DNA from: a virus
Lineage: Duplodnaviria > Heunggongvirae > Uroviricota > Caudoviricetes
Strand: one strand, 5' to 3'
DNA length: 37,127 bases
Virus record (IMG/VR): IMGVR_UViG_2923339551_000001
Shown: in pieces, positions 1,254 to 33,007 of the stretch
Numbering within the stretch: the first letter of the stretch is position 1
How the letters are laid out: every line of letters starts with the position of its first letter
Notes under the pieces: model-generated
What the model was told of the DNA's origin: nothing
Seen by the model: the letters and a program-made list of their open reading frames with translations, nothing else
The model's database searches: none
Position numbers and translations under genes: made by a program

Positions 1254-2147
1254 CTATTTCCAGTTACAAGCATCTTGAAGCGGTTTTAGTGCATTTGACA
1301 GGCCGCTTAAATTGAAAGTTGCACTTACAGGGCTTTCATTATAAGGGGTTATTTTTGTGTACATTTTATGTGAGTTGGCAAGTTTTCTTATGAAATCAAT
1401 ATCATTACCTTTATAAAAAACAGCCTTTGTATCTGTAGATATTAGCCAGTTTCTTTCAACTGCTTTCTGTTTATCAAGACGATACAGCATGCTGGTTTGT
1501 TCAAGGCCTAAATATACATCCCAACTAAGAAATACTTCGGTTTTCTTTTCTCGGCAAGCTATAAACAGAGTGGGAGTAACAGCTTCTCCAAATGGAGTTC
1601 TGATATAATCATCACTTTCTAACGATAAAATTATATTTTTCGAATCATCAATTGGCGATGTAGTAATGGACGTGTGCCATTTTCCTGCATCTGTGGCTTT
1701 CTCTAATTGTGATTCAGATTGAACAGCTTCATCCTGTGGGAATAGTTTATCGTAGCAGTTTAGTCTGGCTTCTTTATCATTTTCTGCTCGGCATTTAGAT
1801 ATTTCAGAAAGATTTGGTTGCTGAGCCTTTGTTGTTACTAGCTTTTCCGTTTTAGATTTTGAGTTTACAGATGGAGTAAATGTTGGAGAAAAAAAACGAT
1901 CATAACAAGATAAACGTTTGTCATCATCTTTCTCATCAGGGCATTGATCCCTGCTTTCAAATTTTTCAGCAACTTTCGTTCGAGTCGGTTGTATTGACTT
2001 ATCGTAACAAGAAAGTCTGTCTTTATTGTTTTCTATCGCTCGGCACTGGAGCACTGCATTGAAATTCTTATGTTCAGTTGCTGCATGAACAGGCAGTACA
2101 CTAATTGATATAAATAATGCACCTATAGAAAAAATCATATTTTTCAT
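1254..2147 (-). CDS. Hypothetical secreted protein with three Cys-containing repeats
   Basis: 297-aa ORF, AT-rich; N-terminal signal-peptide-like segment (MKNMIFSIGALFISISVLPVHA); three repeats of C-x8-9-RLxCYD(K/R)xF; family not recognised. Confidence 0.6.
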   Translation of the reverse strand: MKNMIFSIGALFISISVLPVHAATEHKNFNAVLQCRAIENNKDRLSCYDKSIQPTRTKVAEKFESRDQCPDEKDDDKRLSCYDRFFSPTFTPSVNSKSKTEKLVTTKAQQPNLSEISKCRAENDKEARLNCYDKLFPQDEAVQSESQLEKATDAGKWHTSITTSPIDDSKNIILSLESDDYIRTPFGEAVTPTLFIACREKKTEVFLSWDVYLGLEQTSMLYRLDKQKAVERNWLISTDTKAVFYKGNDIDFIRKLANSHKMYTKITPYNESPVSATFNLSGLSNALKPLQDACNWK

Positions 2148-2151
2148 TTTA

Positions 2152-2484
2152 TTATCCCTTTGGTTTAGTAAGAAATACTAAAATTCCGATAATGATATCG
2201 CCAATAACCCATAAGCCTCCAATGACAATTAAACCTAAGCCCGTACCAATAACTGCCCCAGCTTTTTCGGCATCGGATGTGGTATTGTTTATTATTTCAT
2301 CAGCGCCTCCTAGTCCAACTAAAAGTGTATAGATCATAAAAATATTAAAAAATATAAAAGTCCATTTAATGAGTTTTCCAAAAAATGAACGCTTAAGTTT
2401 TTTCAGTTGTTTACCACAAGCAGGGCAACATAATGCTGAATCGCTTACCTCTTTCTGGCATTCAGGACATTTGATTAATGTCAT
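2152..2484 (-). CDS. Hypothetical zinc-ribbon membrane protein
   Basis: 110-aa ORF; N-terminal CPEC-x10-CCPAC zinc-ribbon motif followed by two hydrophobic helices; 4 nt upstream of the secreted-protein gene, likely one operon. Confidence 0.6.
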   Translation of the reverse strand: MTLIKCPECQKEVSDSALCCPACGKQLKKLKRSFFGKLIKWTFIFFNIFMIYTLLVGLGGADEIINNTTSDAEKAGAVIGTGLGLIVIGGLWVIGDIIIGILVFLTKPKG

Positions 2485-2683
2485 GTAATCCGTCTCCTTT
2501 GGAACACTACAAGCTGAAATTTGTTACAAAACATTTTGATTTTATCAGATTTTTTGTTGTTGATAAGTGCCAATTGATTAACTGGTTTAGAGTGATACAT
2601 ATAGAAAGGTAGAGCAGTGTCAGTGTGTGATGAAATACCCACAGTTTCATGGGATTTTTGCATTTAGAGCTGTGAGATAGGGT

Positions 2684-2790
2684 AATGTAGTTCAGTTAAG
2701 GAATTGAGGTTCGATAGCTCGAACCTCGCGCAGAGGCAAGATGACTGAAAGCCTGATTCCTTAATGCACAAAAATGAGTCTCTATTCATA
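2684..2790. repeat. Left terminal inverted repeat of the cassette
   Basis: Reverse-complements to 4056-4166 at roughly 93-95% identity (hand alignment); contains nested internal palindromes ttaaggaat/attccttaa and gaggttcga-tagc-tcgaacctc. Confidence 0.6.
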
Positions 2791-2996
2791 GAAGTGTATT
2801 AACTAATCGACATCGCCTGTTGTGTGGATTGCCCCCATAAACACGGGCTTTCTGCTTGTTTAGTAGTCACAGTATGTCTAAGCTTTCTCGTTAGCTTCTT
2901 CTGAAATGACCTGCACTACAAGCCCGCGCTTCCCATACACCACATGCAGTGCAAACTGACGCATCGGTTTTTCAATCAGCTAACTAAAAGTTTGGC

Positions 2997-3830
2997 TCAC
3001 CAAACGATGCGCCCATCTGATGTATGTCCTTTGGCTTGTTTTACTATACTGAAATCTACTATTCCATATGGATAAATTTTATTTACTTTAAACACAAGAT
3101 TAGCAACTAAATGCATTCTCGATTTAACTGTTTCTGTGCGCAAAGCGATATTTGAGGCCCCTTTTATTTTAGCGCTAGGATAAATGAGACCATCAACATC
3201 AGGGTATTTATCAAGAAGAAGACGGCAAAAAATTCTTGAGTAAATATAATTTACCTCATGGGCATTGATACTATTAAGCAACTCAGCAGAAAGGGCATCC
3301 ATATACAAATATGATAGCAAAGCACGGATGTCGTCCTTACCAATTCTGCTAATGATGCCACGAATTTCATTAAACACTTCAATTGAAATTGTATTTACAC
3401 CGTGATACACATTAAAGACCTCACCGATAGCAAAACATCGCATTCCAGACTCTGAATTTTCCGGCATCTTAAAGTGAGCTATGTGAACATAATCCCCTTC
3501 TTTTGCATTAATTTCGGCTAAAGCTGTTCCGATACTATAAGCGCCATAGAAGATAGCTTGTCCATCATCATTCATTCGGCCTATTTTACATTTTTCTGGT
3601 GGAGGGGGATATATTTCACTGATGTTATTATATCCGCATTCATTTGGGCACTTTCGCGCTCTAAAAATTGGTCTGTCATAACCGAACTTGAAATTAACAC
3701 CGCCATATGATTGAAGATACCATCTAAGTAATCTCTCTACTTTCTCTGGCTTTATAGTAGTTAGTAATTCTTTACGAAACAGATCAAGACTATTTAACTC
3801 AATTACCTTTAGCTTATTATTCATGACCAT
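2997..3830 (-). CDS. RES-domain protein (putative NAD+-targeting toxin), no adjacent antitoxin gene
   Basis: 277-aa ORF, AT-rich; motifs FRAR, GRMNDDGQAIFYGAYSIGTALAEI and GLIYPSAKIKGASNIAL match the Arg/Glu/Ser signature regions of the RES family as I recall them; no Xre-like partner ORF in the cassette. Confidence 0.55.
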   Translation of the reverse strand: MVMNNKLKVIELNSLDLFRKELLTTIKPEKVERLLRWYLQSYGGVNFKFGYDRPIFRARKCPNECGYNNISEIYPPPPEKCKIGRMNDDGQAIFYGAYSIGTALAEINAKEGDYVHIAHFKMPENSESGMRCFAIGEVFNVYHGVNTISIEVFNEIRGIISRIGKDDIRALLSYLYMDALSAELLNSINAHEVNYIYSRIFCRLLLDKYPDVDGLIYPSAKIKGASNIALRTETVKSRMHLVANLVFKVNKIYPYGIVDFSIVKQAKGHTSDGRIVW

Positions 3831-4055
3831 CCCTATAATTTTAGAGTTTCGTTATTCACTTTACACTTCATGCTGACCAGTTACCGCCACTGAGTCTACT
3901 GCACAGGCTAACAATTTATGGTTATTTTTCAATGTACAAGTACAAAAAATCAAGGCGTTCTAGAACTAGAAGTCGTCAGTTGACCGCGAAAGGTAAGAGG
4001 CGGCATTCAGACAATGCGGGGGATACACCGCCAATGTCGAGTAGTTAAGCGCTTT

Positions 4056-4166
4056 TATGAATAGAGACTCATCTTGGGCATTAAGGAATCAGGCTTTCGG
4101 TCATCTTGCCTCTGCGCGAGGTTCGGGCTATCGAACCTCAATTCCTTAACTAACTGAACGGCATTG
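4056..4166. repeat. Right terminal inverted repeat of the cassette
   Basis: Reverse complement matches 2684-2790; followed by the 12-bp direct repeat. Confidence 0.6.
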
Positions 4167-4239
4167 GTGAGATAGGGTGCCTTATCGACCTTACCCTGGC
4201 AACCGATTGACGGGGGATTGCTCCCCCGTCGCGGTTTCC

Positions 4240-4380
4240 TTACTGCTTACACTGTAAGAACGCCGCAAACTCCGCTCCCCAGAAGCTCATCCGTATTTCG
4301 CACAGCGAACCGTGCAGCATCCAGATGATGAGGATTGCCGTCACGCAGAACGTGATGGCCGTAAGCGATTTTTGCGACAT
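4240..4380 (-). CDS. hok: Hok/Gef-family type I toxin (small membrane peptide)
   Basis: 46-aa ORF not in the track (under 60 aa); hand translation MSQKSLTAITFCVTAILIIWMLHGSLCEIRMSFWGAEFAAFLQCKQ; SLCEIR and E-x-AAF motifs and the TM segment fit Hok/Gef; AAGGAG Shine-Dalgarno 8 nt upstream. Confidence 0.6.
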   Translation of the reverse strand: MSQKSLTAITFCVTAILIIWMLHGSLCEIRMSFWGAEFAAFLQCKQ

Positions 4381-4570
4381 AGCGCTTGCTCCTTTTTCAG
4401 GGAGGCGCTAACCTATCACTTGCTAAGGTTAGACGGTTAGGGCCTCGGTTAAACAGAAATGTTTTCCGGGGCCTTTCCACATCTGGCCTTCGGGTATTCC
4501 CTCCGACCATCAGCCGAAAGGCACCCGCGCGTAATCTATCGCTTTTTTGTTACTCCGGCAATTCTGCCTG

Positions 4571-4831
4571 TTAATTCTGAGATAAAGGCAAACTCATCTG
4601 ATTGTTTCCCCTGTGTGAAGCTGGCAACTCATGCCACGGGATACCTTCTGAAGAGTGAACGCCGGGGGCGTGTTTCGATGTGAATTTATGGAAAGCTTCC
4701 AGTGTTGAGAAACTTATGCCGCATTCCAGGTTGTTACACTGGTAATATTTTTTCCGTACGGTGTTTGAATCATTTTCCGAACGACTGGTGCGGATACGGG
4801 CAGATGCGCCACAAAGCGGACAACGGAACAT
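4571..4831 (-). CDS. ogr: Ogr/Delta-family zinc-finger late transcription activator
   Basis: 86-aa ORF; CPLC-x19-CNNLEC zinc finger and N-terminal similarity to P2 Ogr; position next to D. Confidence 0.8.
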   Translation of the reverse strand: MFRCPLCGASARIRTSRSENDSNTVRKKYYQCNNLECGISFSTLEAFHKFTSKHAPGVHSSEGIPWHELPASHRGNNQMSLPLSQN

Positions 4832-4873
4832 AGCGACCTCCCTTAACGTGGTGCTGCTGCTATTCTAAGTTGC

Positions 4874-5983
4874 TCACTCTGTTTCTGCTATCCATTCCGG
4901 GATTTTTGCTTCAAGCTCAAGCTGCGTGGTAAAGCCACTGTTATCAATGGTGTGCTCGGCTTTCGCAATAATCCAGTCCTGATTATCAATCTCGCTTTTA
5001 AATCCTGTTACCGTGCCATGCATTTCGGGGTAGAGTTCTGCGCGTCCACGAGCCAGTGTGATGGAGAATGATGCGGCTCCGCGTTGTAGCTGCTGCCACT
5101 TTGCCGCCGCTGCGCGTCTTGCTGCCAGCTCGTTCTGATAAGTCTTGCGTAACACAAACACATTGCCATCCGCGCCTTCCATATAGTCACCTTCACGGCT
5201 GCTGCTTTTCTCCTTTTTGGGTTTTGGCGGTTTACGGCGTTTCACGCTGACTTTTTTCTTTTTCCCGTAATTAAGATCAAGCCAGTAGGCGCGTACCCCC
5301 GTATACGCCTCGCGGTCAGCAATACGGAATTGATGGCGATCGCCGCTGCTGCGTGTAATGGCGAACGAGGGCAACGGCTGGCCCTGTGCGTTCACGCCAC
5401 CACCTGGCATGATGAATAACAGATTACCGCTTTTTACCGTGGTGATTGCGCCCAGCATTTCCGCCATGCGCGTAAGGAAAGACATGTCGCTTTCTTCGGT
5501 CTGGTCGGCGTGGTCGATTTCGATATCCATCAGCATTTCGCTGATTTGCGGTTTCAGGCCGTACCGATGAGCGATGGCGGATACCACGCGCTCAACGGTC
5601 ACATCATGCCAGGATACTTCACGTTTAACGTTAAATTCATCCCGAAAATCTGCGCTTCTGGCTGAAACAGTCAGCCTGTCCGGCGGTCCTTCGTGAGCGA
5701 TTTCATCAACAATGTAAGTGCCTTTTTCTGTCAGCGGTTCTCCTTTCCAGCCAATGAGAACCGTCAGGCGCGCGCCCCGTGGCGGTAGCTGCAACTGACC
5801 ATCCGCATCATCCAGCGTGATGGTGAGCTGGTCCGCTTCAAATCCCCGGTTGTCGGTCAGTGACAGGTTCATCAGGCGCTCTGCCACGCCGGACAGCGTT
5901 TTACCCTCCGCGAAAATATCCAAATCCGGCATTTTCACGGGGTCTGTGCCCTGACTGAGCAATTGCATGGTGGTATCGGTCAT
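4874..5983 (-). CDS. D: Tail protein D (late control gene D family)
   Basis: Track ORF 4874-6115; I place the start at the internal ATG at 5983 (MTDTTMQLLSQG) because of a GGGAGGG Shine-Dalgarno 6 nt upstream; gpD-like sequence throughout. Confidence 0.8.
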   Translation of the reverse strand: MTDTTMQLLSQGTDPVKMPDLDIFAEGKTLSGVAERLMNLSLTDNRGFEADQLTITLDDADGQLQLPPRGARLTVLIGWKGEPLTEKGTYIVDEIAHEGPPDRLTVSARSADFRDEFNVKREVSWHDVTVERVVSAIAHRYGLKPQISEMLMDIEIDHADQTEESDMSFLTRMAEMLGAITTVKSGNLLFIMPGGGVNAQGQPLPSFAITRSSGDRHQFRIADREAYTGVRAYWLDLNYGKKKKVSVKRRKPPKPKKEKSSSREGDYMEGADGNVFVLRKTYQNELAARRAAAAKWQQLQRGAASFSITLARGRAELYPEMHGTVTGFKSEIDNQDWIIAKAEHTIDNSGFTTQLELEAKIPEWIAETE

Positions 5984-6140
5984 CTGTTCCCTCCCTGTGC
6001 GGCATGGTCGCATGTGCGTGCGGAAGGGGTTACTGCTTTTTGTTGTCGCCGAATCGGGAGAACGGCGCAGGGGTGAGATTACGCGCGTGGTGGGTGATGA
6101 TTGTTGCCGAATCATTTAACGGATACAAGGGGCTGAAGCT
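5984..6140. promoter_or_regulatory. Divergent intergenic region between D and FI (putative late promoters)
   Basis: 157 bp between divergent starts; contains direct repeats TTGT(C/T)GCCGAATC at about 6042 and 6098; no clean TGT-N12-ACA late-promoter motif identified by eye. Confidence 0.3.
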
Positions 6141-32685: not shown

Positions 32686-33007
32686 GGTGTGGCCCCTTGT
32701 GTAGTAAGTTGTGAAAACTCACCATCCAGAGCTGCGAAACTGTGGGTGGCGAGACGTACGAGGTTCGCAGTACCGGCTACACAAGAACCCGGCCCGACCG
32801 AAGTCGGCCCCGTACGCCCCGCCATAATTCTGACGCGAAAAAAACGTGGCAATACAGTACGCACAAAAAAACCGCTGGCGCGGTTGTGCGCTTGTGTAGT
32901 CAGCAGGCTGCGAAACCCGGCACCCGTTTTGTGAGGTGCAGCGGAAATGTAACCTGACTGATTGCGGCATGGCAAGCGGTTTTTTTGTGTGTGCATGTTC
33001 TGGTTTC

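Follow-up and report, generated by a model that had tools for sequence, protein, structure and literature searches.

A probable Hok/Sok-family type I toxin-antitoxin module without mok, carried as a moron of a P88-like prophage

Does a 46-codon frame lying between an IR-bounded cassette and the ogr gene of a P2-like prophage encode a genuine Hok toxin, and is it accompanied by the mRNA folds and the antisense RNA known from hok/sok (parB) of plasmid R1, the paradigm of type I toxin-antitoxin systems? The question is raised by a viral DNA of 37,127 nucleotides (IMG/VR record IMGVR_UViG_2923339551_000001; this whole stretch is called the window below), in which a sequence-only reading had proposed a small minus-strand ORF with a Shine-Dalgarno (SD) sequence and a single-transmembrane (TM) product of the Hok type. 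From the evidence set out here, we consider it very probable that the locus is a Hok/Sok-family type I toxin-antitoxin module, with a toxin nearest to HokA and belonging to PHROG 251, residing as a moron in a P88-like prophage.

The proposed ORF is present at exactly 4240..4380 on the minus strand. It opens with ATG, comprises 46 codons followed by TAA, and has the SD AAGGAG (4389..4394, minus strand) 8 nt ahead of the ATG; this SD is kept across our alignment of homologous loci, taking the form GGAGG in the lambdoid copies. The encoded peptide of 46 aa, MSQKSLTAITFCVTAILIIWMLHGSLCEIRMSFWGAEFAAFLQCKQ, contains one hydrophobic stretch at residues 8-22 (KD mean 2.55 versus 3.12 for R1 Hok), as do R1 Hok and K-12 HokA, in agreement with the single TM segment assigned earlier, and both parts of the Hok signature named in the same reading are in place, SLCEIR at residues 25-30 and EFAAF at residues 37-41. 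The features of the Hok/Gef family are found together in this peptide, namely small size, a single N-terminal TM segment and a periplasmic C-E ... E-x-A-x-F pattern, and the residues C12, T14, C27, E28, E37, A39 and F41 do not vary in an alignment to which HokC and R1 Hok were added. The family assignment is borne out by profile searches: Pfam HOK_GEF (PF01848) matches with 29.9 bits (E 4.1e-7) over profile positions 5-42 of 42, above its gathering score of 22, and PHROG 251 matches with 80.6 bits (E 1.3e-22).

Since the frame has only 46 codons and is overlapped by further small ORFs on either strand, it might be a chance ORF without coding function. The substitution pattern argues against this possibility. 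The dN/dS of the hok ORF is 0.13-0.55 when compared with homologues whose DNA is 74-98% identical, and within the close group the summed differences amount to 57 synonymous versus 3 non-synonymous changes, which marks the ORF as a coding gene that has been maintained, as opposed to a frame arisen by chance. Together with the Pfam and PHROG matches, the strong SD at ideal spacing and the conservation in about 1,750 genomes, these values leave a chance origin with a practically negligible probability. Judged from its sequence, the ORF is a genuine gene for a Hok-family membrane toxin, the toxicity of which is predicted. Within the family, the best NCBIfam match is the HokA equivalog NF007290, at 34 bits versus a cutoff of 89, and the Hok subfamily NF007279 gives 21.6 bits versus a cutoff of 73. 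Because the score falls far under the HokA equivalog cutoff, we place the peptide in a separate clade and do not regard it as a HokA orthologue.

The genomic setting identifies the replicon. Over positions 4150-4560, the 411-bp hok region that was searched, the window matches Escherichia virus P88_4B11, a P2-like prophage classified as Xuanwuvirus in the Peduoviridae, with 100% identity, and the equivalent region in E. coli chromosomes is a prophage adjoining flk. The order of elements is gpD (4874-6115), ogr (4571-4831), hok, cargo and prophage end; the hok promoter described below starts 10 nt past the ogr stop codon, and in strain M10 and phage P88 hok is the final gene ahead of the attachment site. 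The module, flanked by ogr and by the right prophage end, is a moron of this P88-like (Xuanwuvirus, P2-like) prophage.

A 394-bp module (window 4167-4560) is present in 1,749 of the 5,426 complete E. coli genomes and occupies up to nine places in a single genome. More divergent copies are located in lambdoid and Stx prophages, in the interval between lom and the tail-fibre genes, as well as in an O-island close to ure. An alignment-based search of species-representative genomes returned 6 loci only, from Escherichia, Salmonella and probable contaminants, and the IMG/VR search gave 80 loci, in all of which the peptide is identical. Hok genes as such are abundant in E. coli, with 14 in O157 Sakai (PMC2887945). 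The ORF had been remarked upon as absent from the ORF track of the window; public annotation of it does exist. The identical protein WP_000078916.1 is labelled 'Hok/Gef family protein' by RefSeq/PGAP, the record of phage P88 carries the note 'hok/gef family protein', and PHROGs also label the peptide as Hok, while PHROG 251 and several Stx-phage records say MokW-like. As the RefSeq, P88 and PHROG labels precede our analysis, the gene call is already known and adds nothing new. Among the PADLOC models, none fits Hok or the neighbouring cargo, and full-text literature searches with the peptide motifs and for hok in Peduoviridae returned nothing relevant. What is added here is the RNA anatomy of the locus, the absence of mok, the allele-like variation in Sok recognition, and the insertion of a cassette at the fbi boundary.

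To describe the RNA anatomy, we aligned 7 divergent loci first and then 26 distinct full-length sequences. The hok promoter is predicted at 4533..4561 on the minus strand, with the -35 element TTGCCG (4561-4556), a 17-nt spacer and the -10 element TAGATT (4538-4533). The TTGC and the -10 are kept in the 7 divergent loci, and the predicted position agrees with that of the hokC and R1 promoters relative to GGGTGC/GGCGC. In a consensus promoter scan, neither this promoter nor the Sok promoter described below reached threshold; both assignments are made from conservation and from analogy with hokC, R1 and sokW. The conserved mRNA module extends over 4167..4526 (minus strand), with G4526 as the predicted +1, and the homology with all other loci stops at about 4167. 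Like the transcripts of hokC and R1, the predicted transcript opens with GGGUGCC.

The search with Rfam/Infernal suggested by the sequence-only reading gave a partial answer. At gathering thresholds, no hok or sok match was returned in the window; the leader emerged in a permissive search only, where RF01794 ('sok') aligned to 4526-4367 through model positions 1-157 with 43.6 bits and E 2.7e-8, the gathering score being 59. A control run demonstrates that RF01794 models the sense leader, as its K-12 match is on the hokC strand and not on the annotated sokC strand. Other members of the clade score 42-51 bits with the same model, compared with 118 for hokC and 87 for R1-type loci.

Two alternative folds are predicted for the hok mRNA. 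The tac element, GGGUGCCUUUCGGCU (4512..4526, minus strand), forms the 5' end of the mRNA and is near-invariant in the alignment. Complementary to it is fbi (4175..4190, minus strand), with the core AAGGCACCC at 4183-4175, and in the full-length MFE fold (nt 1-367) nt 1-15 of tac pair with nt 337-352 of fbi through 15 bp. The alternative partner of tac is ucb, GGAAAGGCCCC (4468..4478, minus strand), which the full-length fold engages with the GAGG region instead. Upon removal of the 3' end, tac is predicted to switch to ucb, and GAGGC at 4446 pairs with GCCUC. A Sok-target hairpin (4401..4446, minus strand) is thereby formed in the 3'-truncated mRNA, with GAGG (4446-4443), which is homologous to the SD of mok, paired to GCCUC (dcb) and the variable target of the Sok tail in the loop. 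A further stable hairpin (4208..4231, minus strand) is located just past the hok stop codon, and its R1 counterpart protects the 3' end of the truncated mRNA (PMC9841398). The scheme of tac/fbi, tac/ucb and target hairpin agrees with the R1 model in the same source.

Both structures were evaluated against the 26 sequences. The full-length structure has 95.2% of its cells paired and 22 compensatory pairs, versus 7.8 +/- 1.9 in shuffled controls, and the truncated structure has 96.0% paired and 19 compensatory pairs, versus 7.3 +/- 1.7, the percentages being inflated because the tested structures were derived from the window sequence itself. Slid controls for the full-length structure are 37-44% paired. 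By the same inflated measure, pairing is 95.6% for the tac/fbi helix, 99.7% for the tac/ucb helix (with one compensatory pair), 91% for the GAGG/dcb target hairpin (helix 6) and 100% for the post-stop hairpin (with 4 compensatory pairs). The tac/fbi helix displays one-sided compatible changes in 7 pairs; double changes are absent, the 5' end being invariant. The RNAalifold consensus chooses tac/ucb. In the full-length structure, a helix between the Sok target and the 3' UTR just upstream of fbi (helix 5) contains 7 covarying pairs, and this helix fits the competition of Sok with the hok 3' end announced in the title of Thisted et al. (1994). Both alternative folds of the hok mRNA, as modelled, hold as conserved across the 26 distinct homologues. 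The Hok-family profile match, the conserved fold and the antisense promoter, the lack of which would have refuted the sequence-only reading by its own terms, are all found at the sequence level, the last together with a conserved hairpin.

That promoter is predicted on the plus strand at 4386..4414, with the -35 element TTGCTC (4386-4391), a 17-nt spacer and the -10 element TAACCT (4409-4414). Its hexamers and spacer length are invariant in the 26 sequences, and lambdoid copies have TTGCCT. The -10 element agrees with the consensus at 3 of 6 positions only; in phage 933W an identical TAACCT precedes the annotated sokW 5' end by 6 nt, and the sokW promoter was reported as functional by Takada et al. 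(PMC8621323). The predicted Sok-like RNA would extend over 4421..4477 (plus strand; about 57 nt, with inferred ends), comprising an 18-nt single-stranded 5' tail, a stem-loop at 4439-4475 and a terminal UUUC. Across 17 alleles, this stem-loop has -20 to -27 kcal/mol on the antisense strand versus -12 to -16 kcal/mol on the sense strand, and it is more stable by 6-15 kcal/mol on the antisense strand in every one of the 17. The stronger hairpin on the antisense strand originates from G-U pairs there, which correspond to C-A mismatches on the other strand. At the sequence level, therefore, the locus has an antisense Sok-type RNA with its own promoter, 5' tail and terminal stem-loop, all as predicted elements. 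A Sok-like RNA and a mok frame had both been expected earlier in 4380-4570; the former is placed there at about 4421-4477, and the latter, as described below, does not exist.

Among near-identical loci, the variation clusters in the leader complements of the Sok loop (mRNA nt 61-78) and of the Sok tail (nt 89-107), with the Sok stems and promoter invariant. Two examples of Sok alleles are CGTCTAACCTTAG and CGCATTACCTTGA. A variable tail and loop beside fixed stems is the pattern expected of antisense RNA recognition elements, as far as the alignments indicate. Prophage copies that otherwise differ little seem to have come to carry distinct alleles of the Sok 5' tail and loop.

The mok frame of R1, hokC and hokW begins a few nt past GAGG and extends hok in frame at its N-terminus, and in R1 the translation of mok is required for Hok synthesis (PMC9841398). 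In the window, a Mok-type extension is closed by an in-frame TAG (4408..4410, minus strand) located 10 codons upstream of the hok ATG. This TAG lies, at 4410-4408, within the invariant block AGGTTAGCGCCTC, which is the complement of the invariant Sok -10. Following GAGG (GAGGCCCUAACCGUCUAACC), the window has no ATG, GTG, TTG or near-cognate start 4-13 nt downstream. When leader ORFs were searched in all frames of the 26 distinct loci, 11 had none within 25 nt of the hok start, and the leader ORFs that reach hok in the others are not conserved. In one Sok-tail allele only, which is not that of the window, an ATT opens a frame that extends to the hok SD. Two candidates for mok were rejected. A 37-aa ORF at 4397-4510 has no SD, falls within the tac stem and is not retained by close relatives; an out-of-frame mok is at odds with the K-12 and 933W annotations, which show an in-frame extension, and our search spanned all frames and near-cognate starts. 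The clade is without mok.

Since no mok frame is available, Hok must be initiated directly at its own SD. The predicted structures give the following picture of this step. In all states, the predicted partner of the hok start region is the stretch of codons for GAEFAAF, so that the hok TIR is largely paired in every state, and the unpaired probabilities do not discriminate between states. In all 8 loci modelled, the truncated state has the smallest opening energy for the TIR, by about 2 kcal/mol only, with mean values of 11.7 kcal/mol for full-length, 9.8 for truncated and 12.1 for truncated mRNA with Sok. A clean SD-sequestration switch would predict this order of opening energies, but with states that are alike by unpaired probability and about 2 kcal/mol apart by opening energy it is at best a tentative reading. 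Translation might be gated by a direct SD/anti-SD switch or by a mechanism of the standby type.

By homology with R1, the module would operate as follows. The full-length mRNA from G4526 would be closed by tac/fbi as an inert form, and trimming of its 3' end would let tac re-pair with ucb, giving an open form. The stable folded hok mRNA would accumulate, and the short-lived Sok would pair with the open form, causing its silencing and decay. Should Sok synthesis halt, whether by prophage loss or induction or because an infecting phage shuts off host transcription, Hok would be made and would depolarise the inner membrane. Sok presumably works via degradation or by holding the anti-SD GCGCCUCC on the SD, which is our conjecture. 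We tentatively propose, with somewhat less than even confidence, that the clade represents a naturally mok-less form of Hok/Sok. Hok would be translated from its own SD or by way of a standby site further upstream, within the Sok-target loop, in the manner of tisB/IstR-1, and Sok would act in another way than by blocking a leader-peptide RBS; in the same proposal, the Sok tail and loop would have diversified into discrete alleles that let up to nine copies per genome coexist without cross-neutralising.

The 3' flank of the module bears on whether it is intact. Immediately 3' of fbi is an IR-bounded cassette of 1,483 bp (2684..4166), which had been noted before as ending about 60 bp past the hok stop; the cassette is there, at a distance of 74 nt from the last base of the stop codon. 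Its IR arms (about 2684-2820 and 4030-4166) are imperfect repeats of about 135 bp each and are 96% complementary over a 78-nt core pair. The sole ORF of the cassette is a RES-domain gene (2997-3830, minus strand, the same as hok; Pfam RES 46.6 bits), and neither the ORF list nor the Pfam search gave a transposase gene inside it. The cassette is framed by a 12-bp target-site duplication, GTGAGATAGGGT, whose left copy is at 2672-2683 and whose right copy, at 4167..4178, covers the last 4 nt of fbi. The flanks joined with one repeat copy match 168 genomes contiguously, corresponding to the empty site; in strain RM10740, for instance, hok is followed by a single copy of the 12-mer and then by a zinc-ribbon gene. 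The inverted repeats, the duplication and the empty sites together identify the cassette as an insertion, and because the insertion duplicates its target, fbi stays intact.

The IR arm folds with -45.8 kcal/mol (z -2.5) and occurs in 65 E. coli genomes only, with exactly two arms in each; a search of plasmids gave no match. Without a plasmid match or extra copies in E. coli, the arm is not assignable to an IS family, and the cassette is a transposase-less IR element, not an IS. The sequence-only reading had compared the cassette with insertion sequences on the 3' side of K-12 hok loci. The comparison is apt for hokC, which has IS186 19 nt 3' of it, but IS150 at hokA is on the 5' side, inside mokA, and the window's cassette is a transposase-less RES element with its 12-bp duplication. 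A parallel is offered by the mobile insertion cassettes (MICs, e.g. MIC231), which are transposase-less, IR-bounded elements with a passenger gene. The RES cassette resembles them in its long terminal inverted repeats, one passenger gene (RES), missing transposase, 12-bp duplication and empty sites; it differs in having no matching IS ends in E. coli genomes or plasmids.

The insertion has separated the module from its terminator. A terminator-like hairpin on the hok strand, AAAAAUCCCAUGAAACUGUGGGUAUUUC (2632..2659, minus strand), follows fbi after about 25 nt in the empty-site alignment, and analogous terminators are present in three other loci (L002, L009 and L004). In the window this hairpin is displaced to 1.5 kb past fbi, and a search for intrinsic terminators between fbi and the RES gene found none. 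In the window's copy, the native hok terminator is parted from fbi by the RES cassette.

It is at this point that a relic has to be considered: the locus might be inactive like the chromosomal hok loci of K-12, with its hallmarks kept and Hok no longer producible. The split between fbi and the terminator is as such a reading predicts, as are the insertion sequences close to hokC and hokA in K-12, the predicted closure of the hok TIR in all states, and the missing mok start with an in-frame stop upstream, given that R1 needs mok translation. However, the peptide is under purifying selection among loci 74-100% identical in DNA, and compensatory changes preserve both folds. All RNA elements are kept in three unrelated contexts, i.e. 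P2-like prophages, lambdoid prophages and the O-island, and the variable recognition elements beside invariant stems and promoter suggest ongoing selection on Sok-hok pairing. Even the cassette duplicated its target on insertion and left fbi intact. We therefore regard an inactive relic as unlikely, and retain the reading of the locus as a Hok/Sok-family module.

The implications of such a module are several. This mok-less Hok/Sok clade is found in about a third of the complete E. coli genomes, and at its gathering score the Rfam hok-leader model detects no member of it. Since mok is deemed essential in the R1 paradigm and is missing here, the clade offers a natural test of Hok translation control that is free of a leader peptide. 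The allele-like diversity of Sok recognition bears on how co-resident prophage copies of a toxin-antitoxin system avoid cross-talk. Finally, the RES cassette at the fbi boundary is a clean insertion of a passenger gene, echoing the insertion sequences beside the K-12 hok loci.

With R1, the window's locus shares features of the toxin and, as predicted, of the two RNAs. Both peptides are small, with a single TM segment and the pattern C...T...LCE...E-AAF; both mRNAs combine a tac that pairs with fbi or ucb, a GAGG/dcb hairpin and a stable hairpin past the stop codon; and both antisense RNAs have a single-stranded 5' tail, a stem-loop and a promoter overlapping the hok SD region. The differences are that the peptides are 33% identical in direct comparison, with 46 aa here versus 52 aa in R1, that the window's peptide has a second periplasmic Cys near the C-terminus, and that the mok start is missing, with the in-frame TAG 10 codons upstream of hok. 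R1 hok/sok is plasmid-borne, whereas the window's locus resides in a prophage and its leader scores under the Rfam threshold.

Two K-12 Hok proteins were compared with the window's peptide, and HokA is closer, at 43% identity, than HokC, at 26%. HokA and the window's peptide share the MxQK N-terminus, a W in the TM segment, SLCE, the C-terminal AAFLxCK and two periplasmic cysteines, and hokA also has a GCACCC fbi-like motif past its stop codon. Unlike the window's locus, hokA comes with an open mokA in its frame, into which IS150 has inserted, and its genomic context is different.

The remaining comparison is with hokW-sokW of the Stx phages 933W and Sp5. To our knowledge, HokW is the sole prophage Hok with a tested role: it is produced on prophage induction and doubles Sp5 phage release (PMC8621323). 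If the window's locus were hokW-sokW, its job would be earlier lysis and more phage release on induction. The MokW-like labels in PHROG 251 and in several Stx-phage records point in that direction, as does the Sok -10 TAACCT, identical to that of sokW, and the two loci also have in common a prophage location and a GGGUGC...GCACCC tac/fbi pair. The proteins, in contrast, are distinct: HokW has 51 aa, resembles HokC and is 31% identical to the window's peptide over 35 residues. 933W has a canonical in-frame mokW, absent from the window, and its hokW is annotated between L0139 and L0136; the homologues that Stx phages have of the window's peptide are found between lom and the tail-fibre genes. 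Identity with hokW is refuted by the 31% identity over 35 aa, and the layout with mokW is not shared; we accordingly give this reading a very small probability, and the 'MokW-like' labels on the window's clade are loose. By analogy, a lysis-helper role is possible for the window's Hok. In the same comparative sense, phage release at the time of induction, exclusion of T4 as described for R1 hok/sok (cited in PMC8621323) and prophage addiction are candidate roles for this Hok/Sok-family module.

Among the hok loci compared with the window (L002-L096), those encoding an identical Hok peptide have leaders that sort into discrete alleles precisely at the predicted 5' tail and loop of Sok, the antisense RNA expected to face the hok mRNA leader. 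The site of variation is window 4418-4466, corresponding to nucleotides 61-107 of the mRNA as counted from its predicted start, and is exemplified by the alleles CGTCTAACCTTAG, CGCATTACCTTGA, ATATCTACCTTAAG and CATCTACCCTAGA. Neither the stems nor the promoters vary among these same-peptide loci. The leader alleles may represent specificity diversification between co-resident hok/sok copies.

The ogr stop codon is separated from the start of the -35 element of the hok promoter by 10 nt (window 4571-4561), and no terminator is present between them. Because the gap is this short and lacks a terminator, ogr transcription may read through into the hok leader. On the other side of the gene, a hairpin follows the hok stop codon at 4208-4231, which in the plus-strand reading consists of a stem and then CGGTTTCCTT. 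It is the sole terminator-like site called by a scan of 3800-4900 in that reading, and could halt antisense transcription entering hok from the cassette side.

The cassette 3' of hok is a transposase-less element of 1,483 bp (2684-4166), bounded by terminal inverted repeats of about 135 bp, and its sole gene is a RES-domain gene (2997-3830, minus strand) with no Xre-type partner beside it. Together with the flanking duplications the element spans 2672-4178, the 12-bp target-site duplication being GTGAGATAGGGT. Among E. coli genomes the site is empty in 168 and filled in 65, and searches of E. coli and of plasmids turned up no further copies of the element ends. The interval between the cassette and flk (1254-2484, minus strand) holds two more cargo genes, encoding a 297-aa protein named 'TagO' by PGAP (phrog_1848, labelled unknown function in PHROG) and a 110-aa zinc-ribbon protein (phrog_6586); PADLOC gave no match for either protein.

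Elsewhere in the prophage, in its early/immunity part, adjoining Rfam matches to the C4 antisense RNA (32742-32829, 83.2 bits) and the Hfq-binding RNA isrK (32865-32939, 64.1 bits), both on the minus strand, score over their gathering scores. The O-island copy of the hok locus (L004, close to the ure genes in strain 350) has two Rfam matches on the minus strand, one to STAXI RNA (L004:1177-1328, 134 bits) and one, about 2 kb from hok, to EFASI RNA (L004:548-701, 48.9 bits, under the gathering score of 51.2).

The gathering score of RF01794, the Rfam family named 'sok antitoxin', misses the entire clade to which the hok locus of the window belongs. When tested on L006 and L010, RF01794 matches the hok/mok strand, not the annotated sokC strand; in effect it models the leader of the hok mRNA, beginning at +1 and ending at the hok AUG.
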